DNA of 64,000 bases from Candidatus Enterousia sp. (GCA_045654485.1 JAZONN010000023.1:23305-87304); one strand, 5' to 3'. Positions 3,907 to 22,704 are shown, counted from the first letter of the stretch. Numbers and translations: made by a program. Notes: generated from the sequence alone by a model not told the origin.

Positions 3907-6564
3907 TTATATAAGTTGGCAGTCGTCTGGGCACGCTGATTCAAAATATTGTAACGTTACTTTGCGACACCTTTCATCGTTGTCTTCTTTATATGTATCT
4001 GTTGTACACTCTGTCGCCGCTTTGCCTTGATAGCATATATTATATTTGCGATCATGGTTAGAAAGTGCTTTTTTGAATTCTTTGGCGACGGCCATGGCGC
4101 GACTCTCTGACAATATTTGATTGTTCATTTTGCTGTTGGGCTTAAATTTTGTGCGATCTGTATGGCCGGTTGTTTGGACACAATAGTTTTGTGCAATTGT
4201 GTTATAATTGGCATCCAAGTATTTCTCGAACTCTGCTGCGGCATTGATGATGTCGGTATTGTCTTTAATGTTAGATTTGCCAGAGTCAAATAAATTATCT
4301 GTGTATAAATCTAATTGTGGTGTGAGATGAACTTCAGCATTTTGTTCATTTTTTATACATGCCTCATTTTCTTCATGATAAGGGTCTGTGCACTTGCAGA
4401 CATTCTCAATTGACGTTGCATGTTCTATGCATTCACATTTGTCTGTATCAACTAAGCCGGTTAATAGACATTCTGGTTTTGGTTCTGGTTCTGGTTCTTG
4501 TTTCACGGTATCGTCTGACTTTGGCAGGTATGTGTGTGTAACTTTGTTATATATATAATCGTTATCGCATTTGCAGTTTAAATCAATTGGTTTTGCGTTT
4601 TCGGCACATTTGCAATCTTCTTTAGCGGTATCTCCAGTCAGGCCACAGGTGCTGCATAGTGTATCAGGCGAAAATATATAGTTAGGATTTTTGCATATGC
4701 AATCTGGATATGTCCCGCCAGAAACGCCTTCTATACCGGTACAGGTTTTGGTTGTTGGTTGGTCATCTATTTTTTTCTGCAAGGCATCCCAGCTTTGTTT
4801 TAATTTTAAGTACTTTGAATTTATGTTGGCGATTTCTTGGCGGACAGAGGCCAAGGTTGGGGCATCTTTATTGATTAATTGGTTGCCGACAATACTGCCA
4901 ATGACACCAACGCCCGCCGTTGTTGCGCCGGCAATAATCAGGTTTTTGGATTTCTTGGTCTGTTCGGCCCATGCGGCGGCATCTGCGCCGTTTGGATCCA
5001 ATATCGCACGTGCCAAAGATGTGTACATACCCGCCGAACGACCCGATGAAACGTCGTCATATAAACCCGATGTCGCAGAGTTTAAGATAGGTTCGCTTTC
5101 GATACCGGCACGCATACCTAAAACATCTTTGCGTAATTTTAAATCATTTGCCAATGTGACATATTCGGCATATAGATTATATAGTTCCGTTGATGTTGGT
5201 AATTCGGTTGGCTGGGTGCCGTATTCAACATTTGTATTACCATAGTTACATTTAAAGGTTGCAACATAACCGCGCATTTTTTCTTCGGCTTCTTGGTCGG
5301 CCTTTTGTTCGGTTAAACCAGATGCCAGCATCATACCGCCGGCACCGGTTGCGGCCATTGATGCCGTGCCCAATATTTTATTGGTAATCGATGTTTCGTT
5401 GTCGTGGGCTGTGTTGTATAGTGTTTCTAATTCACCAATACGGCTGGCGGATTTGTCTTCTGGTAATACCATCATTCCTACACACTCGGAACCGTCTTTG
5501 TTTGGTGTATAGCCCTTTTCGCATTTTGTGGCTTTACAGCGACGATCATTACCCTCGTCGATATATACACCTTCAGTTGCGTGTAGTGGTAGATCTGTAT
5601 CGTGACATTGGGTTTCAGGTATACATTTGGTTTCAGTATTATTTGCTTTGTATTGCTTCTCTTTGCATGTGACCTTGCATATATACGTATTATTATTTAG
5701 CACATAGGCGCTAGATTCGATACCTTCACCTGTTGTGCAGTCTTGTGTTTTTTTACAGGTGGTGTTTAATTTGCTAAGTTTTGAGCGGAATGCTTGGTCT
5801 GTTTGGTCGATTTCTACTTTTTTATTATCTTGGCTCATTAATGTATAGTCAGTATCGCATTCGTATGGATAGCATATGTTGTTTTCATGTTTAAATCCTT
5901 TGGCTATGCCATTTCCACTACAGGTTTCATTAGATACTTCTACTGAGGCTATATCGTTACTAGATTCAGTCAATGTAATATTGTGTTCAATGTCGGAGGG
6001 GTTGGGTGTATTTGGTGGGACTGTGAATTCTGTTGTATTATACGTTATATGCTCAAAAATCAGTTTTGAACCGGGGGCTAATTCTTCTATTTTATATTTT
6101 CCATCTTCATCGCTGGTGGCTTTTTTTGATTTGCCTTTTGATTTGTCTTCTAGGTGTACAATTACGCCCTCTACATTGTTTGCAGCTTGGTCAGTTATTG
6201 TTCCGGTAACTGTGATCCCTTTTGGGGTCATTTTTATTTGCACAACTTGATTGTTTTTGTACTGAGTTTGGCCTTCTTTATCTTTATAGTTTTTATGTGT
6301 TATTATATACTCAAATCTATCATTTATTTCCCCGCTGGGGCGCTTTAGTATGCATACGCCATATTCGTTTGTTGTGCAAGTTGGGGCATCCCAATCTCTT
6401 TTTGGTTTTGTTATGGTTATAACTGCACCTTGGATGACTTTTTCGGTATTATTTTCGATTGTTTGTATTTTTGCTTCATTATTTGTATTCGCCAAGGCGG
6501 GTTGGGTAAAGGCCGACACCATAAACGTTGTGCATAATGCAAATAATCTTAAAAATTTTTTCAT
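3907..6564 (-). CDS. Large secreted Cys-rich protein: signal peptide, CarboxypepD_reg-like beta-sandwich, EGF-like Cys modules, PEPEPKPE spacer, C-terminal OmpA-like peptidoglycan-binding domain; distant member of Cys-rich family
   Basis: 885-aa ORF; N-term MKKFLRLFALCTTFMVSAFTQPALA; segment VTGTITD…VEGVIVHLEDKSK…TSDEDGKYKIEELAPGSKLIFEHITY resembles CarboxypepD_reg; C-term …TTGHTDRTKFKPNSKMNNQILSESRAMAVAKEF… resembles OmpA C-domain; Gly-rich hydrophobic segment IIAGATTAGVGVIGSIVG shared with the paralogues. Confidence 0.6.
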   Translation of the reverse strand: MKKFLRLFALCTTFMVSAFTQPALANTNNEAKIQTIENNTEKVIQGAVITITKPKRDWDAPTCTTNEYGVCILKRPSGEINDRFEYIITHKNYKDKEGQTQYKNNQVVQIKMTPKGITVTGTITDQAANNVEGVIVHLEDKSKGKSKKATSDEDGKYKIEELAPGSKLIFEHITYNTTEFTVPPNTPNPSDIEHNITLTESSNDIASVEVSNETCSGNGIAKGFKHENNICYPYECDTDYTLMSQDNKKVEIDQTDQAFRSKLSKLNTTCKKTQDCTTGEGIESSAYVLNNNTYICKVTCKEKQYKANNTETKCIPETQCHDTDLPLHATEGVYIDEGNDRRCKATKCEKGYTPNKDGSECVGMMVLPEDKSASRIGELETLYNTAHDNETSITNKILGTASMAATGAGGMMLASGLTEQKADQEAEEKMRGYVATFKCNYGNTNVEYGTQPTELPTSTELYNLYAEYVTLANDLKLRKDVLGMRAGIESEPILNSATSGLYDDVSSGRSAGMYTSLARAILDPNGADAAAWAEQTKKSKNLIIAGATTAGVGVIGSIVGNQLINKDAPTLASVRQEIANINSKYLKLKQSWDALQKKIDDQPTTKTCTGIEGVSGGTYPDCICKNPNYIFSPDTLCSTCGLTGDTAKEDCKCAENAKPIDLNCKCDNDYIYNKVTHTYLPKSDDTVKQEPEPEPKPECLLTGLVDTDKCECIEHATSIENVCKCTDPYHEENEACIKNEQNAEVHLTPQLDLYTDNLFDSGKSNIKDNTDIINAAAEFEKYLDANYNTIAQNYCVQTTGHTDRTKFKPNSKMNNQILSESRAMAVAKEFKKALSNHDRKYNICYQGKAATECTTDTYKEDNDERCRKVTLQYFESACPDDCQLI
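4471..4500. repeat. Hexanucleotide repeat (ggttct)3 plus degenerate copies, encoding a PEPEPKPE run in the 885-aa gene
   Basis: ttctggttttggttctggttctggttcttg read directly. Confidence 0.55.
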
Positions 6565-6594
6565 GTGTTTCTTACTTTTTGCTGCTTTGTTTAT

Positions 6595-8193
6595 TTACTT
6601 TTTCTGTGCGGCTTCAGCTGCTTGCCTTATTCTTTCAAGGTTATTTGTTAATTTATCTGCGACAAACTTTCCATTTTCATCTACTAATCCACTCATTAAT
6701 TCAGTTGCCACTTTTTTTGCATTTGTTGATGTATCGATTTTTTCGTTGTCCGTTTTCTTATTCTCATTTGTTTTGGATTGTTCGACTGAATCTTTGCTGC
6801 GGCAACGGCCGTTTTCGTTAACTTGCTGGTCACCTTTGCAGTCGCATCTGTTGAATTCGGAATTCCATTCGCCACCGCTGTTTTCGCATTTGCGGATATC
6901 ACTCTTGTCGCCGGTGCCGTATAATTCGTTGTGTTTGATTTGTGCATCTTTTAATTCTTTTTTGGCTTTATGTGTCGTTACCGCACGGTCAATCGCACCA
7001 GATGTAATCGCACCAACACCAATACCAAGCCCAGAACCCAACATCGCAGCGGATGCAGATGCCTGTTCCCGGGTAAGACGGAATGCATTTTCCATAAATG
7101 TGGTGACGTCAACGCCAAACCAGTTTGGATCGCATGTAAATGTTGCACCGGCGTATGCTTTCTTGGATGCATAAAGTTTTGAATCGTTGCCGGCATAGAA
7201 ATTTACCGTGTACACACAATCCAATGAACGATCGTCAAACATTGCCCCCAATCGTTCGCATGCGCCACGCATTGTTGTGCGTAATTCATAAAGGCGCTTT
7301 TCGTCCGCTTGGACTGCACGTTCGGCATCTTGACGTAAATTGCCAAATACACCCATTACACGGGCCGCCAATCCGTTGTCGGCCGTTTGGCAATCTTTGG
7401 CAATCTTGCCGCAATTCGATATGGCGTGGTCGCCCGCCGTTTTGCCCAAGCATTTGGAAAAGTTTGTGCCACATTCGTCAATAATACATTGGTTATAATT
7501 TTTCCCGCAATTGATTACCGTGTTGTATGCCGATAAACGTTCGTGATGGTCACGATCCGCCAAGATTTCCACCGATAATAATGCATATTCGTGGCCCGTG
7601 CATGTTGTGTTGCGACGGCATGCATCAATCTTGGTTCCCCAAATGGTTGCATCATCAGATGCACATTTGGAAAAGTCCGCACCACATTTTTCAGCCATGC
7701 ATGAACGTAATTCAGAATCACATTTGTTCGCACCCGCAGATATAGTTGCCGTGTGACCAACTATTTCATCGGATGCCGATTTCGCCGCCATCAATTCACG
7801 TTGGGCACGGACTTTGTCCGCCAATGATGTGCCGGATGTGTCACTTGAAGCAGATAATCCCAAGAATGATGAGAAATATGATGCCTTGTTTTGAATGTTG
7901 GTCGGAATGTTTGATGCTTTTGATTCTGATGCGGGTTTTTCGTTTGTTTTGGACGTGGTTGTTGACGTAGATGACGTTGCGTTGCTTGTGCCTTTGTTCG
8001 CAGATGTCGATGCCATCAATACCGAATTCGCACCAGAGGTCGGACGGGGGGTGCGTGATGTCACGCCCGCAGATTGTGCATTGCCACAATATACCGCACC
8101 CATAACGGCCGCAATTGTGCCAAAAGTACGTATCGTATTGCGGTTGCCGTTCGTTTTATCGTGTTGCATAGTCATCTTTTTTCCCCGTTTCAT
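6595..8193 (-). CDS. Secreted or lipo-anchored Cys-rich protein, member of the giant Cys-rich paralogue family (duplicated C..KCGADFSKC / CIIDECGTNFSKC modules, Gly-rich hydrophobic segment)
   Basis: 532-aa ORF; S/T-rich linker after N-terminal hydrophobic segment; motifs shared with 765-aa and 288-aa paralogues; alternative start at 8175 has better RBS. Confidence 0.55.
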   Translation of the reverse strand: MKRGKKMTMQHDKTNGNRNTIRTFGTIAAVMGAVYCGNAQSAGVTSRTPRPTSGANSVLMASTSANKGTSNATSSTSTTTSKTNEKPASESKASNIPTNIQNKASYFSSFLGLSASSDTSGTSLADKVRAQRELMAAKSASDEIVGHTATISAGANKCDSELRSCMAEKCGADFSKCASDDATIWGTKIDACRRNTTCTGHEYALLSVEILADRDHHERLSAYNTVINCGKNYNQCIIDECGTNFSKCLGKTAGDHAISNCGKIAKDCQTADNGLAARVMGVFGNLRQDAERAVQADEKRLYELRTTMRGACERLGAMFDDRSLDCVYTVNFYAGNDSKLYASKKAYAGATFTCDPNWFGVDVTTFMENAFRLTREQASASAAMLGSGLGIGVGAITSGAIDRAVTTHKAKKELKDAQIKHNELYGTGDKSDIRKCENSGGEWNSEFNRCDCKGDQQVNENGRCRSKDSVEQSKTNENKKTDNEKIDTSTNAKKVATELMSGLVDENGKFVADKLTNNLERIRQAAEAAQKK

Positions 8194-8209: not shown

Positions 8210-9076
8210 CTAGTCAATGCGTCCGCATGCCGTGTCGTGATATTTGCATAAATCTTTGGCCATGGATTTTTCTGTGTCAAATCCTGATGCGCACTTGTTT
8301 GGCATGTTTTGGGCGCAAACCTGGGCAATACATTTGTCACGTAGTGCGCCGGTTTTACAATCTTCTTTTAAAGAAGCCATCTGATTTTCACGTGCCGTGC
8401 GATATCCAGATACCAATGCATCCAATGCCGCATCAATCGAATCCATTGTCGATTTGCGTGATGCCAATAATTCGGCACGGATAACCGTGCTATGTGCATC
8501 ACACTTTGGTTCAGATAGCAAACAGGTCGAAAATTCACGGTCGAAATCTGTGTCGTCAAAACACTTTTCAAATCCAGAACCGCAACGGGTCGCACCCAAT
8601 AGGCAATTGCGTACCGATGCAGAACATGCCGATGCACTTTGTTCCGAATGCATTTGATTAATCATGTCCGATACACCAGATATAGTATCCGCACCGGCGC
8701 ACGCCGTTTCAATTAATGGATCATATGCTTCTTCTATGTCATTGATGGTGCAGTCCGGCAATTTCTGCAGACAGCGCAATGTCGCCCATGCGTAACGTTC
8801 GCCGGCGTCCGTTGGGGCCGTCTTTAATTCTTTGTCGGATATGTTATATTTCGTTGATGAACCCGCAGATAAAGATTTCATCACGTTTTGGGTCGGTGGT
8901 GTGCCGGCCGCAGATGTCCCGCAATATTGACAGCGGGCAATCGTGTTCGATGACATATTTATCGCACATGCAGAATCAAGACAACGTATTAAGTTTGCGT
9001 GCGAACACTGCGTCGCCGCATTCGCACTATAACCCAGCAATAATGCCGGTATTAAAATCAAAGTTTGTTTTTTCAT
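8210..9076 (-). CDS. Secreted Cys-rich protein, short member of the Cys-rich family (N-module C..RCLDSAC…, CGSGFEKCFDDTDFD module)
   Basis: 288-aa ORF with signal peptide MKKQTLILIPALLLGYSANA; 16 bp upstream of the 532-aa gene on the same strand (operon). Confidence 0.55.
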   Translation of the reverse strand: MKKQTLILIPALLLGYSANAATQCSHANLIRCLDSACAINMSSNTIARCQYCGTSAAGTPPTQNVMKSLSAGSSTKYNISDKELKTAPTDAGERYAWATLRCLQKLPDCTINDIEEAYDPLIETACAGADTISGVSDMINQMHSEQSASACSASVRNCLLGATRCGSGFEKCFDDTDFDREFSTCLLSEPKCDAHSTVIRAELLASRKSTMDSIDAALDALVSGYRTARENQMASLKEDCKTGALRDKCIAQVCAQNMPNKCASGFDTEKSMAKDLCKYHDTACGRID

Positions 9077-9234: not shown

Positions 9235-10041
9235 ATGGCAATTACTTGGAATGCAACAACAAAAAAATGGACTTTGGTTGGTACGTGTAGTGCGGCCGGT
9301 GCGGCTCTGCTTGTTTGGGCAGGTGTTGCAATTGGTAACGCAAATAGCAATGCCAATGAAGCCAAAGGCGTGGCAGGTGCTGCAATGGGGCAGGTGAAAT
9401 CTGTTGAAGGTGCAGTAGAGGCATTAGATGCCGAAGTAGATTTGGTTTATGAAGCGGTTGAACAGGCACAACGTACAGCAGATAATGCGTTGAAAGAAGT
9501 AAAAGTTCATCGTGATTCTACTATTGCGCAGGGTGTGCATCAAGCTGCTAAAAAGCCAGCGGCAAAACCAGTGGCTAAAAAAGAAGAAGCAAAGCCAGCC
9601 GCAAAACCAGTAGCTAAAAAAGAGGAATCAAAACCAGCCGCAAAACCGGCGGCGCAGCCAGTAAAAATGGTCGCAGCTGTTTGTGCGGAGTCTGGTAAAA
9701 CGGTTGTGCAACAATCTGCATCAGAAGCACCAGTTGATGTTAATGTTGACTTGGGCGGCAAAAATACAGGTGCCACAGTCGTCGCAACAGATGTTAGTGT
9801 AGTACAGGGTGAAAAATTAAGCCAAGGTGCAAAGGTTGTGCAACAAATGGCAACAGAGGCACCATCTAATGTGCAGGTGACTGTGTCCGGTGATAACAAA
9901 GGTGTTGTTGCCGTCGGTACAAATGTACACGTTGAACAAACTGTCTTGCCGGATGATTATGTAGAGGTTACTGTTAAAGAATCTTGCACTGTGGTGCTGA
10001 CAGACAAGGCGTACAGACAAATGCGTCGTCGTTGCAGATAA
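9235..10041 (+). CDS. Membrane-anchored hypothetical protein with tandem K/P/A-rich repeats (KPAAKPVAKKEE x2.5)
   Basis: 268-aa ORF, N-terminal hydrophobic helix, coiled region, lysine/proline/alanine repeat, C-terminal domain with 3 Cys. Confidence 0.5.
   Translation: MAITWNATTKKWTLVGTCSAAGAALLVWAGVAIGNANSNANEAKGVAGAAMGQVKSVEGAVEALDAEVDLVYEAVEQAQRTADNALKEVKVHRDSTIAQGVHQAAKKPAAKPVAKKEEAKPAAKPVAKKEESKPAAKPAAQPVKMVAAVCAESGKTVVQQSASEAPVDVNVDLGGKNTGATVVATDVSVVQGEKLSQGAKVVQQMATEAPSNVQVTVSGDNKGVVAVGTNVHVEQTVLPDDYVEVTVKESCTVVLTDKAYRQMRRRCR
9547..9660. repeat. 39-bp tandem repeat x about 2.5 (gcaaaaccagtRgctaaaaaagaRgaaKcaaaRccagcc)
   Basis: Unit 9562-9600 and 9601-9639 differ at 4 positions; partial units on both sides; in-frame. 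Confidence 0.7.
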
Positions 10042-10063
10042 TAATTTGTATCGATAATAATAT

Positions 10064-10089
10064 CCCACCGATTGGTGGGGTATTTTTTT
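10064..10089 (+). terminator. Intrinsic terminator
   Basis: cccacc-gatt-ggtggg + T7. Confidence 0.6.
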
Positions 10090-10159
10090 GGTTTTTTATG
10101 CTGGACAGAAAAAAGAATCTTGTGCTATGCTGTGTTTGTCATCAGAGAGAGTAGATATA

Positions 10160-13100
10160 ATGAAGTTTATCAGAAGTTTTATTTTTGCTTTGTTTTTTGC
10201 ACCTTTTGCAGCAGGGGCGGCATCCAATGATTTTATGGTTGCGGCACAGTTGTTGGCGGCGGCCAAGGCGGCTGATATTCAACAAGTTCAGGCCTTGGTG
10301 AATAATGGCGCAAATGTTAACTTTGTGGATTCTACGGGGTTGTCGATTGTTTGTACGGCTTTGATGAATAATGATGTGCGTGCAGCACAAATTTTGCAGA
10401 TGTATGGTGCAGATGCATCACAATGTGATCGTCAAATTCGTCAGTATAATAACCGAAATAAGCCCAAGGATACCGGTGGGTTGTTTAGCGGACTGTCGTC
10501 TGCCCAGACCATTAGTTTAGCGGCGGCGGGGGCCGCCGTTGTTGTAGGTGGCTTGTTATTATTAACAGATGTGTTCGATCCTGGTAATGATAACGAATCG
10601 GTGTCGGGTGGTGGAACACGTCCCGGTGGTGGTGGCAGTGACAATAATGCGACCGCCGAGGCATATTTGACTGTGCCGTATAGTCCAGCGTATCTGGGGA
10701 CAGATGGTAAGGTTACAACAAGTAATGAAATATATTTAGAAAATTTGGCCGGTTGGAATCCAGATGCGGGTGGATTAAAGGAAGCCGATTTTAATTTCTT
10801 TAACGATGTTAATGTGCAAAATTATTTGTTGATGATGCATGGGTATTCGGCATTTGCAAATGAATATATGGGTAAAGAAATTTTCCGTGATGAAAAAAAT
10901 CGCAATCCTGTTTTGGTTGGTAACAAGGCCGGTGGTGGTCGGCCGGTTGTTGTTGGGCTGGTTACAAGAAATGGTTTAAATCCGACGGGGTCGGCAGAAC
11001 GTGGTGAAGGTATAGAATATGCAAGTAGCGCATCGGTATCATCGGAAACTTTTCTGGTTGATAAATATTTGAACTATGAAAAACCGGTAAATGGTGTGTT
11101 GGGGCAAGAGGTCATAAGTGCTGTATCTGCATTTGATTTGTCGGGGGCTGGTACGGCTATGAATCCTTTTGCGACGTCATATGATAGTGCATTGGGAAAA
11201 ATTGTTGCGGGTTGGTATGGTGATGGACGTGCCTATGGTGATTTTTTTGGATTTGTACCTTATGGTCGTTTGGGGATATTTAGAACCGGTGGTGGTAAGG
11301 AGTGGGTTAATATAGAAAAATCAACCGATGGGGCTGTTTTGGGAACTGTTGCTGGGGGGGGCGATGTTGCAATTGCGGTTGGTGATAAAATTACATGGAA
11401 TGGGGTGACGTATGATATTTTGTCTGCTTTGACGGATACGGGTGTTGTTCGTCCGCAAATTACAGTTAAGGACACAACATACGATGTTGCAAATCCAACA
11501 AATATGATGATTGGAAAATGTTCGGGTGATGGTTGTACGGGTGAATCGGATATTGCAATCTATGTTGGGGCAGATGGATATTATTACGTAAATACAATGG
11601 GTGGTGATAGTGTTGATGCAGTTTGGACTGTGAAAGATGGTAATTTATATGCACAGAAAGAATTGGTTGATGCGGACTATAAGAATTTCCAGGCATTGTT
11701 TAATGCACGTTCGGTTGATGTGTTGGCAAATGTATCGGTGATTGAACCTTCTCGTAATGTGAATTATTTAACTGTTGCGGATGTTCCGGCGGCATTAAAA
11801 TTGGTAAAGGAAGATGGTACAAATTATACTTTTATTGATTTGATTGATGCGGTATATGATAGGAATGGTACTGACACAACGACACAGGGTGAATATGCGC
11901 ATCGTTTATTTAATGGGTATGGCACGGGTAATCCCATCCTGGTTATGTCGGCGGGCGAATTCGCATTGGGGGTTGGTGATGGTTTGTCATCATCTGTATT
12001 GGATGCGACATTTGAAAATTATGCGCCATTGTTATACGACAATAATTTGCAACATATGTTTATGACGGTTGTTGCGGTTGGGCATACCGGCGGCACAAAA
12101 GATGCGGATTCTATAAATGATTATGGAAATGGTACGGCAACAGAGTTTGGGCCGTTATATCTATCGGCCTGGCGTGATAAAGATGATACCCTTTATATGT
12201 CACGTAAGTGCGGTATTGCGGGGTTGGGGGTTAATGGGATTGACCCATGGTGTTTTGCTGCAGCGGGTGCGACGGGTGAAATGGCGACGGCTGCCGCAGC
12301 GGGGGCTGTTGCGTCATTGAAAGCCGCATTTAGTTATATGACTAATCCACAGATATTTACATTGATGGCTTTGACCGCAGATGGTTATTTGTTGGGTACG
12401 GATGCTTCGGGTAAGGCATTTGATAATGAAACATTGGCGGCCTATTTACAGAATATGTATGCTTTGCCGCCGGAATATTATCCAACAGAATTGTCGGCTG
12501 ATGAATATTTGAAGGCGTTTGCAGAAGTGTATGGTTATGGTTTAATCAATTTGGAACGTGCGATGACGCCGAATAAGAAAATTTATTTCTTTGATGGCAC
12601 AAATATCGTATCGGCAAACGGTAATGCGTATTGGCGTGCGGCAACAAATACTACATTTAAACCGTCGAGCACATTTAATTTGCGTGGTGCAACAATACGT
12701 GCGCCGTTCTATGATATGGTGACAAGTGTTGATGGAAATATGTCTTTGCCACGTGTGTGGGAAAATGAATTTGCGCTGGGTATGGATGGTCGCCGTTCAT
12801 TGTATATGGGTGATGTATTGGGCGAATTAAATACCCGTGTTGAAGACATACCAAAAACACAGATTGGTAATTTGGGTTTTTCTATGTCTTGGTCTGAACG
12901 GGCATACGAAGATAATTTGGGAGGATTGGATTCTTTGGTGTTGGATTATGTGTCTGGCAATTGGGAATTTGGTGCGTCGTATCAAAGATATTTGACGGAT
13001 GGGATGGCTCGTTTTACCCAGACGCATAACTCAATTTTGGGATTAATGTCGAATGCTTTGGTGACGGATGCAAGATACCAAATTGGAAATTGGTCTTTCG

Positions 13101-13804
13101 GTGCAAGTGCATTTTCTGGTGCGGTGACAGATGAAGGGTTGTTGGAATATGATCCGGCGATTTCTAATGCTTATATGCCGGCAAAATTGGGCTTGATGCA
13201 GGGGGCGTCAGCCGATGTTGCATGGGGAAACAATCGCTTTGATTTTGTTGCAACAATTGGTGCAGCGCATGAAACGGGTACCATATTGGGGGCGCAGACG
13301 GATGGTTTGTTAGATATGGGAAATGGTGATACAGCGTATATTGATGTGATGGCAAGATTTGATTTATCTGATAATGTACGATTAACCGGTCGGACGACGT
13401 GGGCGCAGACACGCAGCAAACCAAATGGCATGTTTGTGTTGGGAATGTCAGATATATATTCGAATTCTATGTCTTTGGCGGCAAATGTTGGTTCGTTTGA
13501 ATTTTCTGTGGCGCAACCTTTGGCTATATATGATGGTTCATTGAAATATGCGTATGCAGAATATGATGTTGTTAATATGGGTGGGGGTAAGTATGAATTA
13601 AATGTTCTAGATACCCATGTTGAAGATTTAGATTTGTCTGCAGGACGTCGTGAGTTACGCTTTGCCGGTACGTATCGCCGCAGCTTTGGAGAGTTTACAG
13701 ATGGGGCATTTGGCTTTATATATCGTGTAAATCCAAATAATACCGATGAATTTGGAAATGAAAGTGTGTTTATGTTGAAATTAACACATCGTTTGGGATT
13801 TTAA
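10160..13804 (+). CDS. Large outer-membrane/autotransporter-like protein with N-terminal ankyrin repeats and C-terminal beta-barrel-like domain ending in F
   Basis: Start ATG 10160 after gagagag RBS; signal peptide MKFIRSFIFALFFAPFAAGAAS; two ANK repeats (…LVNNGANVNFVDSTGLSIVCTALMNNDVRAAQIL…); last about 300 aa amphipathic beta-strand pattern ending …FMLKLTHRLGF. Confidence 0.55.
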   Translation: MKFIRSFIFALFFAPFAAGAASNDFMVAAQLLAAAKAADIQQVQALVNNGANVNFVDSTGLSIVCTALMNNDVRAAQILQMYGADASQCDRQIRQYNNRNKPKDTGGLFSGLSSAQTISLAAAGAAVVVGGLLLLTDVFDPGNDNESVSGGGTRPGGGGSDNNATAEAYLTVPYSPAYLGTDGKVTTSNEIYLENLAGWNPDAGGLKEADFNFFNDVNVQNYLLMMHGYSAFANEYMGKEIFRDEKNRNPVLVGNKAGGGRPVVVGLVTRNGLNPTGSAERGEGIEYASSASVSSETFLVDKYLNYEKPVNGVLGQEVISAVSAFDLSGAGTAMNPFATSYDSALGKIVAGWYGDGRAYGDFFGFVPYGRLGIFRTGGGKEWVNIEKSTDGAVLGTVAGGGDVAIAVGDKITWNGVTYDILSALTDTGVVRPQITVKDTTYDVANPTNMMIGKCSGDGCTGESDIAIYVGADGYYYVNTMGGDSVDAVWTVKDGNLYAQKELVDADYKNFQALFNARSVDVLANVSVIEPSRNVNYLTVADVPAALKLVKEDGTNYTFIDLIDAVYDRNGTDTTTQGEYAHRLFNGYGTGNPILVMSAGEFALGVGDGLSSSVLDATFENYAPLLYDNNLQHMFMTVVAVGHTGGTKDADSINDYGNGTATEFGPLYLSAWRDKDDTLYMSRKCGIAGLGVNGIDPWCFAAAGATGEMATAAAAGAVASLKAAFSYMTNPQIFTLMALTADGYLLGTDASGKAFDNETLAAYLQNMYALPPEYYPTELSADEYLKAFAEVYGYGLINLERAMTPNKKIYFFDGTNIVSANGNAYWRAATNTTFKPSSTFNLRGATIRAPFYDMVTSVDGNMSLPRVWENEFALGMDGRRSLYMGDVLGELNTRVEDIPKTQIGNLGFSMSWSERAYEDNLGGLDSLVLDYVSGNWEFGASYQRYLTDGMARFTQTHNSILGLMSNALVTDARYQIGNWSFGASAFSGAVTDEGLLEYDPAISNAYMPAKLGLMQGASADVAWGNNRFDFVATIGAAHETGTILGAQTDGLLDMGNGDTAYIDVMARFDLSDNVRLTGRTTWAQTRSKPNGMFVLGMSDIYSNSMSLAANVGSFEFSVAQPLAIYDGSLKYAYAEYDVVNMGGGKYELNVLDTHVEDLDLSAGRRELRFAGTYRRSFGEFTDGAFGFIYRVNPNNTDEFGNESVFMLKLTHRLGF

Positions 13805-13810
13805 TTAGAA

Positions 13811-13835
13811 AGCGGGGCGGGGCCCCGTTTTTTTA
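13811..13835 (+). terminator. Intrinsic terminator
   Basis: gcggggcggggccccg hairpin + T7. Confidence 0.6.
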
Positions 13836-13897
13836 TCGTGCTTGAAAATGTAAATTTTCTGTATATTATGGTGTTTGTTAGCTTAAAAGGTGTATAT

Positions 13898-15099: not shown

Positions 15100-17460
15100 T
15101 CATGCGTTGCTGGGTGTTTCTTCTTCTTTTTGTGTGTCTTGTTCGGTTGATGTGTTGTTGTCTGTTGTTGGTGGTGTCTGACAGTATCCCCATGCCGTGT
15201 GTGCAGATGTTTGATCATAGAACAATTTGTACCGTGTTGTGTTGGTTGTGTCTGTTGGTGTGCTAACCCAAATTCCGCCCAAACGTTCACATTCTTTTGA
15301 TAATTCCTTGGCCATTTTTACACGTGTGTCGTCCATTACTTTGTTAATATCTTGCAATACTGTTGCGGGCAGGTTTTTGCCGGATTCGCTTGGGCGGACG
15401 CAGACCTGTAATGCGTATTTTGATAATTTTTGATATAAGCTGCCGATATAATCGTCGCCGCATCTGTTGTTGTTTGGTGCTTGTTGTGTGGCACAATCAC
15501 CTACTGTGATGGCTTCTGGTTTTGCTTTTTCGCCGGCGCATTCATAACAGTCGGGGCATGGTTTGCATGTGTTTCCGTATTCTGGGGTGGCGTTATATTC
15601 ACCCATATAGGACAGGTAATATCCCGGGGCGCACGATGTGTATTTGAATTCGATTTCACATGTATAATCGCCATATTGGGTGTTTGTGTTGGTTGTGCCT
15701 GTATTAATAGGGCCTGATAATTGGCCGGTTTGTGTTTGTAAAATACACCATATGTCTGTTGAATATTGATGTGACCCGGGGGAGTATGTGCGGCACCCAT
15801 ATGGTGATGTGTGTAGTGTGTCGTTGCTGGGGACAGCGCACAAATCTTGGGCATATGCGGTTAAAGCTTCGACGCATTGTTGGCCGATTTGCTGGTCGGT
15901 TATATTGTGCATAGTTGCCAATAATTCGTTTAGACCACCGGGGCCGCCGCCGTATAGATTGCTACATGCGTCTAATTTTTCTTGGCACAGTTGTTCGGAT
16001 AGTTCCAAACGTGCGCCTAATAACAATTTTTCGTCTGTATTTGAGAAGTCCTTTAATGATTGATTTTTTTCGTCATAGCATTTATTTACAACTTCAAGGC
16101 ATTCGTTTTTAACCTGACGAATTCTATCTTGTTGACCTTGATAAATTTCTGTTACGGCTTGGCGCATAAATTCATCCCAAACCATGTCGGATATGTCACG
16201 GCATGTATCCAATCCACGTTTGGCATATATGCGTTTGTCGGATAAGTTTGCAACCAGTAATCGATTGGTTTCATTGGTCAAGATGTCGCCAGATAATGAT
16301 ATTTGATATCCCAATTGATAGAATTCGGGACTGTATATCGGTTCGCCTGTTGTAATATTAAGGTATAATCCGGTGATGTCTAAGCAATGTACATAATTTG
16401 GACCGCATGCCGTGTCGGCGGTTATGTCTTGGCGAACCTGGGCAATGCATTGATGGATGTCGGAAGAATTGTGGTTGTTGTAATTTTCTAATCGTAATCC
16501 CTGTAATTCTTTGCCGGCGATACGGATTGCATTGTTTGCATTATTTTTTTCTTGGTTTAATGAATTTAATAGCAGATTACAATCATTTTCGATATACATT
16601 CCATATGCCGATGTAACCATTGTTTGTATGGCATCTGTTGGGCATTGGCTGATTGCCATCTGGGCGCATTGTGCATGTACAGCGTTGTACAACGCTTCGC
16701 CAGATAGTTCGGCAATATTAACGCCCCCCATCAAACCGGTGGTCGACCATATCGTGTCAATTGTGCCGGCGATGTCAACGGTGCCTTGGGTGGATAATGA
16801 TTGTTTTTTTGTTTTAGATAATATTGCACTTATGCCCGATAATTCAGATGTGGCGGTGGAAGAATCTTTCATAAAAGTTTGCTGATTTTCACCAGCGGTT
16901 CCTTTTATCATCGCATTTACTTCTGCGGGTGACTTATCGACAACAGTTAATTGTAGATCCCGAAAATCTTGCAATTGGTTGGATGTATTGCCCAATGCAC
17001 GCTCACGATTTTGGATTTCATAAATTTTAGATGAACATGTGCATCTACGGTATTTGGTGTCTAATGTGCCACAAAACTGATCCATGCATGTAAAGTATGC
17101 GTCACGACATGTGTTATAGTCCGCATTAAATGTCTCAGAAGGTTGGGCGAATACATTTATTGTGGCACGTGCGGTTGCTCTTTTTTGTGTTGGGGTGCCG
17201 TTGTGTGCAGATGTGGTTCGGGTGGCGGTGCCACGTGCGGTTGTTGCCGAACGAGGTTTGGTCGCTGTGCGTGCATTTGTTGAGTTGCGAAATGTTTGGG
17301 TTATTGTGCGTGGTGTTGTCGAACGTGCATTTGTCGCCGTGCGTGCAACGGTTGTAGATTGTGTGGCAGGACGTGAGATGGTTTTTGCATTACGTTCAGC
17401 GGCGTTGACACTGCCAACACCGGCGATTAACGCCATAATGAAAAATAGTATCCTATCCAT
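15100..17460 (-). CDS. Giant secreted Cys-rich protein, family member (N-module YNTCRDAYFTCMDQFCGTLDTKYRRCTCSS; R/T-rich linker)
   Basis: 786 aa; signal peptide; linker TARTATNARSTTPRT…; LYNAVHAQCAQMAISQC… module aligned with paralogues. Confidence 0.65.
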   Translation of the reverse strand: MDRILFFIMALIAGVGSVNAAERNAKTISRPATQSTTVARTATNARSTTPRTITQTFRNSTNARTATKPRSATTARGTATRTTSAHNGTPTQKRATARATINVFAQPSETFNADYNTCRDAYFTCMDQFCGTLDTKYRRCTCSSKIYEIQNRERALGNTSNQLQDFRDLQLTVVDKSPAEVNAMIKGTAGENQQTFMKDSSTATSELSGISAILSKTKKQSLSTQGTVDIAGTIDTIWSTTGLMGGVNIAELSGEALYNAVHAQCAQMAISQCPTDAIQTMVTSAYGMYIENDCNLLLNSLNQEKNNANNAIRIAGKELQGLRLENYNNHNSSDIHQCIAQVRQDITADTACGPNYVHCLDITGLYLNITTGEPIYSPEFYQLGYQISLSGDILTNETNRLLVANLSDKRIYAKRGLDTCRDISDMVWDEFMRQAVTEIYQGQQDRIRQVKNECLEVVNKCYDEKNQSLKDFSNTDEKLLLGARLELSEQLCQEKLDACSNLYGGGPGGLNELLATMHNITDQQIGQQCVEALTAYAQDLCAVPSNDTLHTSPYGCRTYSPGSHQYSTDIWCILQTQTGQLSGPINTGTTNTNTQYGDYTCEIEFKYTSCAPGYYLSYMGEYNATPEYGNTCKPCPDCYECAGEKAKPEAITVGDCATQQAPNNNRCGDDYIGSLYQKLSKYALQVCVRPSESGKNLPATVLQDINKVMDDTRVKMAKELSKECERLGGIWVSTPTDTTNTTRYKLFYDQTSAHTAWGYCQTPPTTDNNTSTEQDTQKEEETPSNA

Positions 17461-17876: not shown

Positions 17877-17909
17877 AGGTCCTAAGGAAATTGTATGTAG
17901 GTGGTGCAC

Positions 17910-20198
17910 ATGATATTAAGAATTTTTGCAACTGTTTTGGCTTTGGTTCCAGGTGTGGCGTTTTCCGCTGTGCGTGGTGAAGATGCGCGTGTAAGTGTTC
18001 AGCGTGTGTCTATGGCGGGGGTTCGTGGTCCCAATATTTCTAAGACATTGCATACGTCGTCTGGTGTTGATGATGTTGTGAAAGACGATGTATCTGGTGA
18101 TAATTCAGATGCGGGTGATGATGTCGGTGGTGATTCGGGCGGTGGAAATACCGATGGTGGTGATTCTAGTGGCGGTAATGATTCTGGTAACGATAATGAA
18201 ACTGGGGATGGTTCCGGTGTTGTTGGTGGTTTGTGTGATCGTGAAATGTATCGAACTTGCATGGATGAATTTTGTTTGATGGATGAAAGTGATGGTGGAC
18301 GTTGTTCTTGTTCGGATAATATCTATGCGGCAGATGCGATTGTTGCAGAGATTCAATCGATTCAATCCAAAGCGGATAAAATGTACACCGAACAGGTTGA
18401 ACGTGAAAAGTTGGGTGCAAACGCTGATTATATTTTTGAGGCAAATGAAACAGAAGAAGTGGTAGCTCAGAAAAAAAGTTTTAGTTCCAGCGATTTGTTG
18501 GCTGATATTTTTGCAACAGATGTTTTGACGGATGAAGAAGAAGTTGTGACACAGTCGCCAGATTTGTCTGCAGATGATATGATTGGTGATGTGTTGTATA
18601 ATAGTGCATATGAATATTGTTCGTCGTCTTATTTGGGGGCGTGTACATCTGCGGTTCGTAATGCGGAAACTATGTTGTATTCTCGTTCGATTACGGCGGA
18701 TTGTAAGGCGTATGATTCTTATTTGGCAGATCAAAAGCGTACAGCCGAAGCCAATGTAAAGACGGCCGAGGCGGCGGTTCGTGCTGCACGTTTGTCTGTG
18801 TTCGGTTCGACAAATAAGTACAATCGTGGTGAATGCTTGTTGGCGTATCGTTCGTGTATCGCAGATAAAGGTGGCTGCGGGACGCATTTTGAAAATTGTT
18901 TGAGTGATTCTTTATTGTCACGTCGTGCAAATGCATGTGAAGATATCTTGAATCAATGTGTGGCAGTTCGTGCCGATGTTGAAAAAGATTGGAAAGAAGA
19001 AAAAGAAATGGTGTTGAATGATGCTGCAAAATTTGCATCACGTAATGCACGTCAGATGTGTTTGGCAAATATGCAGGCCTGTTTAGAAGATAATTGTTCG
19101 ATTGCGACAAATTCTGATTGTTTGGGTAATGTTGATGTTGCGATGAAAATCTGTCCGGTTAGTGAAATTTGTGTTGTTCAATTGCCTGGTACATCAGATG
19201 CGGTAAAAATTAGCGGATTATGGGGTGGGGCATCCGAAATAGAGTTTGAAAATACATTAAAAGTGCCAATTCAAAATAAATTGAAATACCTGCGTACGAA
19301 ATTCTGTCAAAATGATGTTTCAAAATGTTTGCAGGAAAAATGTGGTGCGGACTTTACAGCGCCGGAATGTTTGGGCAAGAAATCATCGGCTTTGGTTGCA
19401 ATGTGTCCACAAAATTCAATCTTGTCTTGTGCAGGGGTTAGTGGTTCTGACTTTGAATTGTTGATTAGTTCTGCGACATTGAAAATGGACTATCAAATTA
19501 TGCAGGGTTGTATAAATCATTTTGGTGAACAATTGGGGCGTGTTTGTGGTACGGATATGTCTTGTTTACCATCTGATGATATTGTTATGGGGATGTCTGA
19601 AATGCCAGAAGACATTGTGGCTGCTCGTAAAGAATTGATTAAAAGAACACAGAAAAGTGTTGAATCGTTCTTTAAGGATTTTGAAAAGGATAAGACGATA
19701 GAGGCCTGTGCGTCTTTGGATGGGGCTTTGGGTGACAAAGTATTTATGAGTGCACGTAAGGTTGCAGAAATTGGTGCAGAAAATCGTGCGTTGCGTCAAT
19801 TAGAGGATAAAATTGCAGAACTGTCACGTAAACAGGATTTGGCCAAAGCCGAAGCAAATTGCTATGCAATGTATGCTGTTGAAACACCGGATGAATCGGA
19901 AAAGAATTATAGCTATATCCGTAGTGTAGTGTTTGAGCCGGATTTGCGCAATTGTCATGTATGCCGTATGCAACAGGTTTGTGAAGAAGGTGGTGAATCT
20001 AAATGGACGTCGGCATTAAAGTCGGCTGCGGGCGGTTTGACAGCGGGTGCATCGGCGGGCACTATGATTTCTCCGGGGTGGGGGACCGCAATTGGTGGTG
20101 TCGTTACCGCGGTAGGTGCCGGTATAGTCGGGGCGCAGGCCGGTGGAAAAGAGGATTTCTGTCAAGAAATCGAAAGTTGTGAAGACGTAAATATGTAA
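17910..20198 (+). CDS. Giant secreted Cys-rich protein, family member (D/G/S-rich acidic linker; N-module LCDREMYRTCMDEFCLMDESDGGRCSCSD)
   Basis: about 762 aa from ATG 17910; signal peptide MILRIFATVLALVPGVAFSA; about 45 Cys; C-terminal Gly-zipper-like hydrophobic segment. Confidence 0.65.
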   Translation: MILRIFATVLALVPGVAFSAVRGEDARVSVQRVSMAGVRGPNISKTLHTSSGVDDVVKDDVSGDNSDAGDDVGGDSGGGNTDGGDSSGGNDSGNDNETGDGSGVVGGLCDREMYRTCMDEFCLMDESDGGRCSCSDNIYAADAIVAEIQSIQSKADKMYTEQVEREKLGANADYIFEANETEEVVAQKKSFSSSDLLADIFATDVLTDEEEVVTQSPDLSADDMIGDVLYNSAYEYCSSSYLGACTSAVRNAETMLYSRSITADCKAYDSYLADQKRTAEANVKTAEAAVRAARLSVFGSTNKYNRGECLLAYRSCIADKGGCGTHFENCLSDSLLSRRANACEDILNQCVAVRADVEKDWKEEKEMVLNDAAKFASRNARQMCLANMQACLEDNCSIATNSDCLGNVDVAMKICPVSEICVVQLPGTSDAVKISGLWGGASEIEFENTLKVPIQNKLKYLRTKFCQNDVSKCLQEKCGADFTAPECLGKKSSALVAMCPQNSILSCAGVSGSDFELLISSATLKMDYQIMQGCINHFGEQLGRVCGTDMSCLPSDDIVMGMSEMPEDIVAARKELIKRTQKSVESFFKDFEKDKTIEACASLDGALGDKVFMSARKVAEIGAENRALRQLEDKIAELSRKQDLAKAEANCYAMYAVETPDESEKNYSYIRSVVFEPDLRNCHVCRMQQVCEEGGESKWTSALKSAAGGLTAGASAGTMISPGWGTAIGGVVTAVGAGIVGAQAGGKEDFCQEIESCEDVNM

Positions 20199-20220: not shown

Positions 20221-22704
20221 ATGCGTAAGAATAGTTTTTTGTTTGTGTGTTTGTGTTGTGCACTGGGGTTTCTCCCAGTGCATAATGCGTTTTCGGCCAC
20301 GCCAAAGAAGGCGGTAAAGCAATCTGCAATTCAAAAAGGAACATCGGTTCGTGTGAAAAGCGAAGCCGTCGGTATTTATGATGAAGATTGTTATAGCGCA
20401 TATTATGGATGTATGGATCAGTTTTGTATTTCAGATAATGAAAGCGGTGGTAGTTGTATTTGTAGCGATGCGTATGCCGGTTATGAGGCGCAGTTAAATG
20501 CAATCAAGGAACAGTTGATTGAAGCAGAACGCATTTCAACGGTCGAGGTTGAAAAAGTAAAGGCAGGTGCCGATGCTGATATTATTTTTACCGGACAAAG
20601 ACAGTATGATAAAAAGGGAAATCTTTTAAGTTTAGATGAAGTAGAAGGTAAAAAATCTGTTGGATTATTGGCTTTGTGGGATGATGCCGTCGAAGAGGAA
20701 GAGGGAGACGAAGATTACGATTCCATTTTCTATGGTGATGATTTGGATGGTTTGACCGGTAATGCTTTGCATAGTGCAGCCCAAGAATTATGTGTTGCGC
20801 AGTTGCCAGATAAATGTGAAGGTGATGTCAGTTTGTTGGCAAGTATGTATTCACGACAGATTGTATCTGACTGCAAGGGTTTGGAAAATAGTTTGCTTCA
20901 AAAACAGGCGACCGCTGATTTGGAAATGTCAAAGGCTGAATCGGCTGTGCGTGCCGCTTTACAGGAAAGTTTAAGCGAATCCAACAAATACACTTTGGGT
21001 GAGTGTATGGTTGAATTCAAAAAATGTATGCGTGGGGCGGATGCATGCGGTACCGATTGGGAACATTGTGTTGGTCAGGTTGCCAGTGAAAATATGCAAA
21101 AATCTTCTTTGCGTGGTAAATCGTATGGTTCAAAGTCGGCATATAATATTACCGAATCTACGATGGAGACATTAGAGGCAAAACGACCAATTTGTGAACG
21201 TGTTCTGTCCAGTTGTGTTGCCGTGCGTGATAATGTGTGGCCGTCGTTCTTAAAGGAAGTGGCACCAACAATTCAATTGGCCGAATCACACATTGAATCG
21301 CGTTTCCGTCAAAGTTGTTTAACGGATATTTCAAATTGTATACATACCGCATGTAAAGATGATATTGCCGGAAAAGGTGTTGCGACAATGGATTCGTGTT
21401 TGGCATATCCGGAAATGGCACGCAGTTTCTGTAAAGTTGAATTGGAACCATGCGAAAAAATGGAACCATTAATTTGGAACTATGTGACCGATAAATTGGC
21501 GGCTATGCGTGTGGATGCATGTACGCAAGAGGTCAAAGATTGTTTTACACATGAATCCAGATGTGGGGAAAATTTCCAGAATTGTATCGGTATTGATTTT
21601 GAACATATCCATGATATGTGTCCGGTTGACAGTTTGGTTGTCTGTAAACAGGGAAATCAGGATTTCAATTTGGATGATTTAGACAAAATGTTGATGGGGC
21701 TGTATTTGAATATCGATACAACCTTGGCGGACCAATGTCAGGAAATTGTTGATAATAAAATGATGGAGATTTGTGGCAGTACAACAGATTGTAACAAATT
21801 TGCATCCGATGATACGATTGGTACCGGTTCTTTGCGTTCACAAAAAGATGGTATCGTGTATCGTTTGACGGGGATGATATCATTTGGTTCTATTCAGGTT
21901 GGTAATGCCAGTGACTATGACCCAAAATCCAGTATTTCAAATCAATTAAAGCCCGGCGAAATTGGCGTGGCAGAATATCTGAAAAAGATTAAAGAGGTAA
22001 ATTCAGATGTGCCAAACCATGAAGGTATTATTTCGGCGATTGAAGAAGAATTGAATAATATCGCGGGTACGATTAATCGTACGATTGAAATGATAGAGCA
22101 GGATCAAAAAATTCAGCACTGTATCCATGGCCGTAATTTAGAGCAGGTTACAGGTGATAAAAAGGATGTTACCACGGGACGTTTCCCAAATCTGTTGAAT
22201 CAAATAAAGATGCAGATTGCGGTTGCGGCTTTGCGTCAGGCCCAAGATAACTATAATGCCAAATGGAACGAAATGTTGGCGGCGGCAAACCATGATGCGT
22301 CTGCGGACGTGGCGCAGTATATGTGTCAAAAAATGGCAGAAAATGCCGCCACCACTTTGACCACTCAAACAAATGGTTTGACACCTCCGTATGCCATCAG
22401 TTATGAAGTTGGGTCGGGATTAAATGTTAATGATTTAACCATTGGTGGACATTCTGTGACCGATTTGGGGCAGACCACTTATAAAAATGATGGCTATCTG
22501 GGGAAATCCAGTGGTACATTTGGGGCTGGTACCAAAGAAACCACGGCGACATTTAATCGTGAAGCCAGAGTTTGTCATTTGTGCACTACGATTATTACCC
22601 AGTCGTGTAAAACAACGGGCAGTAAATCTTGGTTCCATAATAACAGAAATACGTCTTGTACAACTGCGGAACCAATCCAGAAGTGTGAAGATATACCAAT
22701 GTAA
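20221..22704 (+). CDS. Giant secreted Cys-rich protein, family member (N-module EDCYSAYYGCMDQFCISDNESGGSCICSD)
   Basis: 827 aa; 22 bp after the preceding paralogue (co-transcribed); RBS agagagag. Confidence 0.65.
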   Translation: MRKNSFLFVCLCCALGFLPVHNAFSATPKKAVKQSAIQKGTSVRVKSEAVGIYDEDCYSAYYGCMDQFCISDNESGGSCICSDAYAGYEAQLNAIKEQLIEAERISTVEVEKVKAGADADIIFTGQRQYDKKGNLLSLDEVEGKKSVGLLALWDDAVEEEEGDEDYDSIFYGDDLDGLTGNALHSAAQELCVAQLPDKCEGDVSLLASMYSRQIVSDCKGLENSLLQKQATADLEMSKAESAVRAALQESLSESNKYTLGECMVEFKKCMRGADACGTDWEHCVGQVASENMQKSSLRGKSYGSKSAYNITESTMETLEAKRPICERVLSSCVAVRDNVWPSFLKEVAPTIQLAESHIESRFRQSCLTDISNCIHTACKDDIAGKGVATMDSCLAYPEMARSFCKVELEPCEKMEPLIWNYVTDKLAAMRVDACTQEVKDCFTHESRCGENFQNCIGIDFEHIHDMCPVDSLVVCKQGNQDFNLDDLDKMLMGLYLNIDTTLADQCQEIVDNKMMEICGSTTDCNKFASDDTIGTGSLRSQKDGIVYRLTGMISFGSIQVGNASDYDPKSSISNQLKPGEIGVAEYLKKIKEVNSDVPNHEGIISAIEEELNNIAGTINRTIEMIEQDQKIQHCIHGRNLEQVTGDKKDVTTGRFPNLLNQIKMQIAVAALRQAQDNYNAKWNEMLAAANHDASADVAQYMCQKMAENAATTLTTQTNGLTPPYAISYEVGSGLNVNDLTIGGHSVTDLGQTTYKNDGYLGKSSGTFGAGTKETTATFNREARVCHLCTTIITQSCKTTGSKSWFHNNRNTSCTTAEPIQKCEDIPM

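Follow-up and report, generated by a model that had tools for sequence, protein, structure and literature searches.

Bacteria of the order Rs-D84 (Alphaproteobacteria), to which Candidatus Enterousia belongs, occur widely in the guts of humans and animals and are suspected of living at the expense of other cells. They have genomes smaller than 1 Mb, are purely fermentative and are without standard transporters (PMC12306168), and it has been proposed that they are obligate symbionts or parasites, relying on membrane proteins of uncharacterised kind to take up metabolites from other cells (PMC12306168). The window analysed, a stretch of 64,000 nucleotides from the gut bacterium Candidatus Enterousia, encodes at positions 10160-13804 (+) a protein of 1214 amino acids. 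Firm support exists for a pseudo-subtilase that is exported and anchored in the outer membrane, with an ankyrin (ANK) module and a Gly/Ala-rich hydrophobic helix at its N-terminus, and for its membership of an undescribed superfamily of ANK-S8-barrel proteins found more widely in uncultured Alphaproteobacteria. It is a lineage-specific envelope protein of Candidatus Enterousia and the order Rs-D84. The reading favoured for its function, to which a probability of roughly 45% is attached, is display on the cell surface as a non-catalytic binding or tethering protein.

The protein is present in every genome sampled here and its binding-type domains are under the strongest constraint, making it a prime candidate for the cell-contact interface. 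An undescribed architecture can now be defined, consisting of ANK, Gly/Ala helix, S8 or pseudo-S8 domain and orphan barrel, in which some members have intact protease motifs. It also poses a topological puzzle, namely a conserved hydrophobic helix with 'inside-positive' flanks within a fully exported protein.

Modules of the protein

The middle of the protein, some 630 residues (171-805), has a subtilase (S8) fold without catalytic function, as judged from its structure model and from alignment. Pfam Peptidase_S8 matches the window protein only over residues 708-747 (E 0.05; 13.3 bits against a gathering threshold of 21.8), and a weak match of this kind is seen in 1 of 21 orthologues. The AlphaFold2 model of residues 139-884 has a predicted template modelling score (pTM) of 0.81, and when this model was compared with the PDB using Foldseek all listed matches were subtilases, with probabilities up to 1.00; the best were the autotransporter subtilases fusolisin (8axg) and Ssp (8e7f). 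The homology to S8 is established transitively, through relatives which are themselves S8-positive. An exhaustive HMMER search of 1.84 billion cluster representatives returned only about 70 family members or fragments at E<1e-30. Its other matches were generic ankyrin proteins, save six informative distant ones (P0214, P0215, P0226, P0239, P0242 and P0244), which share either the ANK-plus-helix module or the barrel with the window protein. All six have significant Peptidase_S8 matches (E 2e-44 to 4e-12, among them 2e-44 and 1e-38), and members of this group carry the NCBI name 'S8 family serine peptidase [Alphaproteobacteria bacterium]'. Alignment of the Enterousia family with the ANK-S8-barrel relatives by hhalign gave a probability of 100% (E 9.7e-54), with an alignment of 956 columns that begins in the signal peptide and ends in the last strand. 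Judged by these alignments, the protein is a descendant of true S8 proteases having the same N- and C-terminal modules, or goes back to a common ancestor with them.

The sequences of P0242 and P0226 contain intact DTG/DAG, HGT/HGS, AGN and GTS motifs and so keep D/H/N/S, the His of P0242 being read from its sequence since the alignment column is gapped there. In a joint alignment with these active relatives, the catalytic Asp column of the window protein holds T269 (T or S in 16 of 16 orthologues), the His column Y341 (variable among the 16), the oxyanion Asn column E600 (E or D in 12 of 16) and the Ser column E707 (E in 11 of 16). As all four positions have been replaced, the domain is a non-peptidase homologue and not a serine protease. 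The original prediction, made from this DNA alone, had called a peptidase-like stretch inactive for want of the catalytic Ser, and the loss in fact extends to Asp, His and Asn. VVAVQH was considered as the oxyanion-Asn strand and rejected, the alignment with active relatives giving PILVMSAGEF instead. The replacements at E600 and E707 are acidic and mostly conserved, and the former active site may have acquired a new role, such as the binding of a metal or ligand, or a new chemistry.

The subtilase fold is interrupted by a beta-rich insertion which is hypervariable and rich in indels (identity 0.40-0.57) and is gapped in the distant orthologues P0157, P0160, P0163, P0151 and P0142. It contains a weak CBM_5_12-like (chitin/carbohydrate-binding) motif, GDKITWNGVTYDI (residues 407-425, positions 11378-11434), found in 4 of 21 orthologues with a best E of 0.023. 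Weak matches to Phage_attach (PF05354) are given by 9 of 21 orthologues.

The last 316 or so residues are modelled as an outer-membrane beta-barrel with a BAM-type beta-signal. AlphaFold2 applied to residues 851-1214 yields a closed barrel from about residue 899, with a predicted local distance difference test score (pLDDT) of 75 (75-95 in the strands) and a pTM of 0.72. DSSP divides the model into 16 strand segments; the number is given here as 14-16 because 14 membrane strands and a long extracellular hairpin would account just as well for the alternation of long loops and short turns and for a deletion of about 22 residues in P0244. In the C-terminus, VFMLKLTHRLGF, hydrophobic residues alternate and the last residue is Phe, as in a beta-signal, and the orthologues end in F or I.

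At the other end of the protein, a signal peptide was assigned by inspection of its n-, h- and c-regions and of an AxA-type (small-x-small) cleavage site, which is kept in every orthologue. The ANK module that follows reads as one N-cap-like repeat and one full repeat, and designed ankyrin-repeat proteins (DARPins) from the PDB can be aligned with residues 29-91. In the window protein itself Pfam Ank_4 and Ank_2 remain below the gathering threshold (Ank_4 17.3 versus 22.7 bits), yet the region is matched in 21 of 21 orthologues (best E 1.3e-5) and several matches are above threshold (25.0, 24.5 and 23.8 bits), the threshold being passed by P0134, P0082, P0152 and the distant relative P0242. 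The module is the best conserved part of the protein, with a mean pairwise identity of 0.87 among 21 orthologues compared with 0.40-0.71 elsewhere, and it is 49-75% identical even in orthologues which are only 33-45% identical overall.

The protein has six Cys residues in three close pairs, 65/89, 454/459 and 684/698, and the barrel has none. Two of these pairs are conserved across most of the superfamily, and the ANK pair (C65/C89) is absent in P0244. Together, the conserved signal-peptidase site and the paired Cys suggest that the whole protein is extracytoplasmic and disulfide-bonded, with the ANK module probably stapled by a disulfide.

Between the ANK module and the Gly-rich linker lies a strongly conserved segment (residues 117-136) which had gone unmentioned in the earlier reading of the locus. 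Its Kyte-Doolittle value is the highest in the protein, and it is preceded by the invariant alignment columns G106, G107, F109, G111-S114 and Q116. Its Hessa-scale sum is about -0.2 kcal/mol here and ranges from -1.3 to +4.7 across the superfamily. The N side of the helix is basic, and its C-flank is net acidic in most superfamily members. By these sums and flanking charges it is a marginal, Gly/Ala-rich segment with charges opposite to those of a stop-transfer anchor. A Pfam scan of the protein gave no match to a glycine-zipper family at E<=1.

The modules that the original prediction had described thus largely stand. The open reading frame (ORF) of 1214 codons is real, its start matching that of plentiful full-length homologues. 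The signal peptide has conserved n/h/c regions and cleavage site, and the two ANK repeats, sub-threshold in this protein, are upheld by the orthologues and the DARPin alignments. The large Gly-rich passenger is reflected in the linker SGGGTRPGGGGS (residues about 146-160) and in a Gly content of 13.7% over residues 146-590, whilst the outer-membrane barrel ending in LTHRLGF is borne out by the closed model and the beta-signal pattern.

Orientation of the passenger and the helix

The favoured reading starts from a protein exported via its predicted cleavable Sec signal peptide and proposes that the dead protease domain, together with the variable beta-insert, is shown on the cell surface in the manner of an autotransporter, where it would serve as a non-catalytic binding module. 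The two-repeat ANK module at the N-terminus would bind a conserved partner, and the Gly/Ala-zipper helix could provide a second membrane attachment of the passenger, analogous to the lipid of NalP and SphB1. The protein may thereby tether Enterousia to a partner cell, or organise the envelope at contact sites. To our knowledge, every S8 domain fused to a C-terminal outer-membrane barrel belongs to an autotransporter. The S8-plus-C-terminal-barrel architecture itself favours surface display, as do the likeness of the passenger to autotransporter subtilases above all, the closely spaced Cys pairs, which are reportedly typical of autotransporter passengers, and the hypervariable, indel-rich insert with its weak carbohydrate-binding motif. 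A precedent for an N-terminally membrane-anchored S8 autotransporter is provided by NalP and SphB1 (PMC9977779; PMC5472700).

Several properties weigh against such display, most of them in the barrel, which is not recognisable as an autotransporter beta-domain by Pfam, profile or hhalign searches. PF03797 gave no match to the window protein at E<=1 in the Pfam scan, the window barrel alone matched no Pfam family at E<=10, and among 15 diverse family barrels none matched PF03797 at E<=10 and 14 had no Pfam match whatsoever. A barrel profile had no match in PDB sequences at E<=10, of two further barrel-profile searches of databases one returned family fragments only and the other nothing, and an NCBIfam scan of the protein gave no family assignment for the barrel. 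With self-built profiles, hhalign assigned a probability of 0.1% to the comparison with Escherichia coli autotransporter beta-domains (flu/yfaL/ycgV/ypjA). The silence of Pfam carries some weight, because PF03797 does detect a classical autotransporter gene near that of P0215, on the same contig. In the models the barrel has 14-16 strands and appears most porin-like. No pore-spanning helix is predicted ahead of strand 1; residues 851-898 there have a pLDDT below 55, with a possible amphipathic pattern at 881-894. Nor is a beta-helix stalk or autochaperone seen in the model, in which about 90 residues with few short strands separate the last S8 helix from the barrel. Conservation is higher in the nominally extracellular loops and in the ANK module than in the strands, which would be unusual for surface-exposed parts: identities are 0.78-0.87 in loops L2, L3, L4 and the last loop and 0.87 in ANK, against 0.59-0.76 in the strands and 0.40-0.47 in turns T3/T4. 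The conserved long loops are probably turned inwards into the lumen or serve as a docking site for another domain. Finally, it is hard to explain how an ANK module that is folded and disulfide-bonded could pass through the outer membrane along with a hydrophobic helix. Of the 'autotransporter' barrel first proposed for this locus, then, the domain order (signal peptide, ANK, middle, barrel) holds, but membership of the autotransporter family is not supported.

Much of this would suit a barrel with its soluble domains on the inside. It is possible, if on balance unlikely, that the barrel is a porin-like channel or anchor and that ANK, Gly/Ala helix and pseudo-subtilase are all periplasmic, as in SLH-porins (OmpM, SLH-OprB), BcsC and PgaA, the helix lying in a leaflet of a membrane as the glycine-zipper helices of SlyB and the Rickettsia 17-kDa antigen do and the ANK module binding a conserved periplasmic or inner-membrane partner. 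Such an arrangement would accord with an even-stranded barrel lacking a predicted pore helix and a beta-helix stalk, with the conservation of the 'external' loops, including a highly conserved L3-like loop (SGAITDEGLLENDPTISAQYMPARLG, modelled at low confidence), and with the ANK module being the best conserved domain. Foldseek comparison of the barrel with the PDB ranked BcsC, chitoporin, OmpG, OmpF-type porins, FadL and PgaA first, with best TM-scores of 0.42-0.44 to 16-strand porins, whereas the autotransporter EstA was at rank 50 with 0.30. Gly/Ala-rich hydrophobic stretches occur likewise in neighbouring envelope proteins, and Rs-D84 bacteria are without standard transporters. The barrel of the distant relative P0215 passes Pfam OprB (PF04966) with 35 bits against a cutoff of 22.9; this was not adopted as an assignment and is a hint only, as it comes from a single member and from short fragments, and neither a longer fragment nor the full-length protein gives it. 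The hhalign probability against OmpF/OmpC was 0.1%, and we know of no porin to which an S8 protease, the domain being active in the relatives, is tethered on the periplasmic side. The variable insert with its many indels also looks extracellular, as do Ca-binding-like loops in the sequences of the relatives.

The remaining alternatives turn largely on the helix, which may end up in the outer membrane, in the lumen of the barrel or in the membrane of a partner. Gly/Ala-rich regions of this kind invite comparison with the N-terminal GxxxG region of the autotransporter toxin VacA and with viral fusion peptides, and one alternative is a contact device whose surface-exposed N-terminus would insert GGLFSGLSS...AAAGAAVVVGGLLLL, preceded by the basic cluster, into the membrane of a partner, with ANK at or inside that partner. 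The conserved charge asymmetry, basic on the N side and acidic on the C side, is wrong for a stop-transfer anchor in the producer's own inner membrane, the motif ahead of the helix is invariant, a marginal hydrophobicity would let the segment pass Sec, and the partner-dependent lifestyle proposed for the organism would fit. The idea is purely inferential, however; the ANK module, which probably bears a disulfide, would need to unfold, there is no sign of processing at the basic cluster, and self-priming is impossible since the resident subtilase domain is dead. Membrane insertion of this kind is thus very improbable, and hardly less so is a broader version, a new type V-like surface device in which a porin-sized non-autotransporter barrel displays the dead subtilase whilst the fusion-peptide-like helix and the ankyrin module insert into or grip the partner envelope. 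If true, such a device would physically bridge Enterousia to the organism on which it depends. The Kyte-Doolittle value of 2.23 lies above the usual transmembrane cut-offs, and residues 117-136 were therefore also considered as a true inner-membrane helix in a protein without an outer-membrane barrel. This was rejected: some 1070 residues, with two conserved Cys pairs and a beta-signal barrel, would then be cytoplasmic, and the flanking charges oppose a stop-transfer orientation. Little better can be said for a type IV-secreted ANK effector. Weak NCBIfam matches to Dot/Icm Ank effectors (AnkY, AnkH) do exist, but at 11 bits against a cutoff of 600 they are noise, and an ANK module behind a Sec signal peptide and with a conserved Cys pair is extracytoplasmic and so not that of an injected effector. 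The suggestion of a host-interaction effector of an intracellular alphaproteobacterium finds no support in this form, Candidatus Enterousia being an inhabitant of the gut with a reduced genome, for which no host cell is known; inner-membrane and effector readings alike merit scant credence. Slimmest of all are the prospects of an ordinary, active type Va subtilase autotransporter too diverged for Pfam. The signal peptide, S8 fold and C-terminal barrel, and the autotransporter subtilases heading the fold matches, are what such a protein would have, but replacement of all four catalytic residues extends over 16 divergent orthologues, PF03797 is found in 0 of 15 barrels although Pfam detects the classical autotransporter near P0215, and the models have neither beta-helix stalk nor pore helix. 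Surface display of a non-catalytic binding or tethering protein continues to be preferred.

A type IV prepilin-like signal, with cleavage between G and F ahead of the helix, was also considered, in view of a prepilin peptidase gene near that of P0215, and discarded: position +5 is not Glu, the 'leader' would have to span 100 residues, and the protein already has a Sec signal peptide. On the contig encoding P0215 (L024), the prepilin peptidase (Peptidase_A24) gene is found two genes downstream of the ANK-S8-barrel relative; the positions noted on that contig for this gene and the nearby PF03797 autotransporter gene are 15481-16149 and 20634-20848.

The gene, its distribution and its surroundings

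The features of the locus are collected in Table 1. An ORF search gives 10088-13804 (+), from TTG 10088, as the longest reading, but this start was rejected as it falls in the T-tract of the hairpin at 10059-10092 and all orthologues begin MK[FY]IR. The ATG at 10160 (MKFIRSF...) corresponds to the start used in over 120 full-length orthologues. The region contains no more promoter-like sites than expected from shuffled sequence. With a promoter-like site of its own and hairpins with T-runs on both sides, the gene forms a monocistronic unit of 1214 codons.

Table 1. Features of the pseudo-subtilase gene and its flanks (positions in the 64,000-nucleotide window)
Feature	Residues	Position	Strand	Remarks
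Terminator-like hairpin and T-run of upstream gene		10059..10092	+	11-bp stem; spans the spurious TTG 10088
Sigma-70-like promoter candidate, TGGACA-18-TATGCT		10102..10131	+	TG before the -10 hexamer; consensus match only
Purine-rich ribosome-binding-site candidate AGAGAGAG		10144..10151	+	8-15 nt 5' of ATG; read from sequence
Coding sequence, 1214 aa + stop	1-1214	10160..13804	+	ATG 10160, stop 13802-13804; >120 full-length orthologues, 54-100% identity
Predicted Sec-type signal peptide MKFIRSFIFALFFAPFAAGAA, cleaved before S	1-21	10160..10222	+	n/h/c layout; small -3/-1 residues in all orthologues
Ankyrin module, Cys pair C65/C89	25-95	10232..10444	+	Ank_4/Ank_2 in 21/21 orthologues; no gaps
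Basic cluster R91, R94, R99, K101, K103, then invariant GGLFSGLSS.Q	91-116	10430..10507	+	
Gly/Ala-rich hydrophobic helix TISLAAAGAAVVVGGLLLLT	117-136	10508..10567	+	Small-xxx-small spacing; Kyte-Doolittle 2.23; identity 0.80
Acidic motif DVFDPGNDN and Gly-rich disordered linker	137-170	10568..10669	+	pLDDT 27 (model residues 1-27)
Pseudo-subtilase, N-terminal part	171-378	10670..11293	+	T269 (10964-10966) at Asp position, Y341 (11180-11182) at His position
Clade-specific beta-rich insertion in subtilase fold	379-513	11294..11698	+	Holds C454/C459; pLDDT about 79-96
Pseudo-subtilase, C-terminal part, C684/C698	514-805	11699..12574	+	E600 (11957-11959) at oxyanion Asn, E707 (12278-12280) at Ser position
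Conserved connector, LPRVWENEF and GLYMGDVLGE motifs	806-898	12575..12853	+	Conservation 0.75; low-confidence model
Outer-membrane beta-barrel (modelled), 14-16 strands, ...FMLKLTHRLGF	899-1214	12854..13801	+	Conserved long loops
Terminator-like GC hairpin and T-run		13814..13839	+	Directly 3' of stop codon

A scan of GTDB species genomes identified 23 species-level loci. Several are in metagenome-assembled genomes titled Candidatus Enterousia, and the remainder are labelled uncultured Alphaproteobacteria or Rickettsiales; the sources are human, ruminant, rabbit and other gut samples. The nearest of these loci is 79% identical. In nearly all loci the same three divergently transcribed envelope genes adjoin the target, encoding a CarboxypepD_reg/OmpA-domain protein, a 532-amino-acid Cys-rich protein and a 288-amino-acid Cys-rich protein. 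No paralogue of the N- or C-terminal modules was found elsewhere in the window by tblastn.

Large secreted Cys-rich proteins without a Pfam domain are encoded at 15100-17460 (-), 17901-20198 (+), 20221-22704 (+), 6595-8193 (-) and 8210-9076 (-). They are paralogous, as judged by tblastn cross-matches, have motifs such as Y..CMD.FC in common and keep their synteny with the target from one Enterousia locus to the next; by appearance they form a lineage-specific family of envelope or surface proteins. Gly/Ala-rich hydrophobic stretches are also found in the neighbouring envelope proteins encoded at 3907-6564 (-), 6595-8193 (-) and 17901-20198 (+), examples being ILGTASMAATGAGGMMLASG, AAMLGSGLGIGVGAITSGAI and GWGTAIGGVVTAVGAGIVGAQAGG, and glycine-zipper-like segments seem to be recurrent in the envelope proteome of this organism.

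Between the conserved neighbours and the target lies an ORF of 268 amino acids, 9235-10041 (+), with an N-terminal hydrophobic segment and repeats of the KPAAKPVAKKEE type. A counterpart was found only in the closest relative (locus L001, 53%), so that the ORF is a recent or fast-evolving insertion in a conserved gene order. A gene for a PpiD/SurA-like periplasmic chaperone (SurA_N_3 and Rotamase_2) is located near the envelope gene cluster, at 2144-3604 (+). Two tRNA genes, Arg-CCT and Leu-CAA, are found at 28190-28265 (-) and 33862-33946 (-). The GC skew of the window is positive (0.07-0.35) in all 2-kb bins but one, 6001-8000, where it is about zero (-0.004), and long ORFs past 17.9 kb are mostly on the + strand. 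The whole window seems to belong to the leading strand of a single replichore.

Comparison with known systems

A literature search combining ankyrin, subtilase and autotransporter returned nothing relevant, and no paper describing this protein was found in the library searched. Among its closest counterparts are the ANK-S8-barrel relatives, themselves uncharacterised, which include MCP4394018.1 (P0242) and MBN2780182.1 (P0272). The same full-length module order is common to both groups: signal peptide, ANK with Cys pair, basic cluster, Gly/Ala helix, Gly/Ser linker, S8 and barrel. They are about 20% identical to the window protein, and differ from it in that the catalytic set is intact in P0242 and P0226 but lost in the Enterousia family, and in that the Enterousia clade has an extra beta-insert.

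VacA, SlyB and the Rickettsia 17-kDa antigen are exported, outer-membrane-associated proteins with a Gly/Ala-rich, marginally hydrophobic helix, which in VacA is the N-terminal GxxxG region, situated at the N-terminus of an autotransporter passenger. The window protein differs from them in having a single helix, placed after an ANK module, and no toxin domains. With the SLH-OprB/OmpM-type, BcsC and PgaA fusions it shares soluble N-terminal domains followed by a large barrel, and its fold matches include BcsC, PgaA and OprB; unlike those porin fusions, it is without SLH, TPR or coiled-coil segments, and its own barrel is the one that no Pfam family matches at E<=10.

With the type Va subtilase autotransporters NalP, SphB1, Ssp and fusolisin the protein has in common a Sec signal peptide, an S8-fold passenger, a C-terminal barrel and a terminal aromatic residue. 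Ssp has a beta-helix of 248 residues (PMC9977779), and in NalP and SphB1 an N-terminal lipid acts as an extra membrane anchor of the passenger (PMC9977779; PMC5472700). The window protein, by contrast, lacks the catalytic D/H/N/S, the beta-helix stalk and a PF03797 barrel, and in place of the lipobox of NalP and SphB1 its N-terminus has ANK and a hydrophobic helix. It should therefore not be filed as type Va, as beta-domain family, strand number, stalk and catalytic residues all fail, even though a subtilase autotransporter is what it works most like. Its undescribed traits are its N-terminus of ANK and hydrophobic helix, its complete catalytic death with acidic replacements and its orphan barrel of 14-16 strands.

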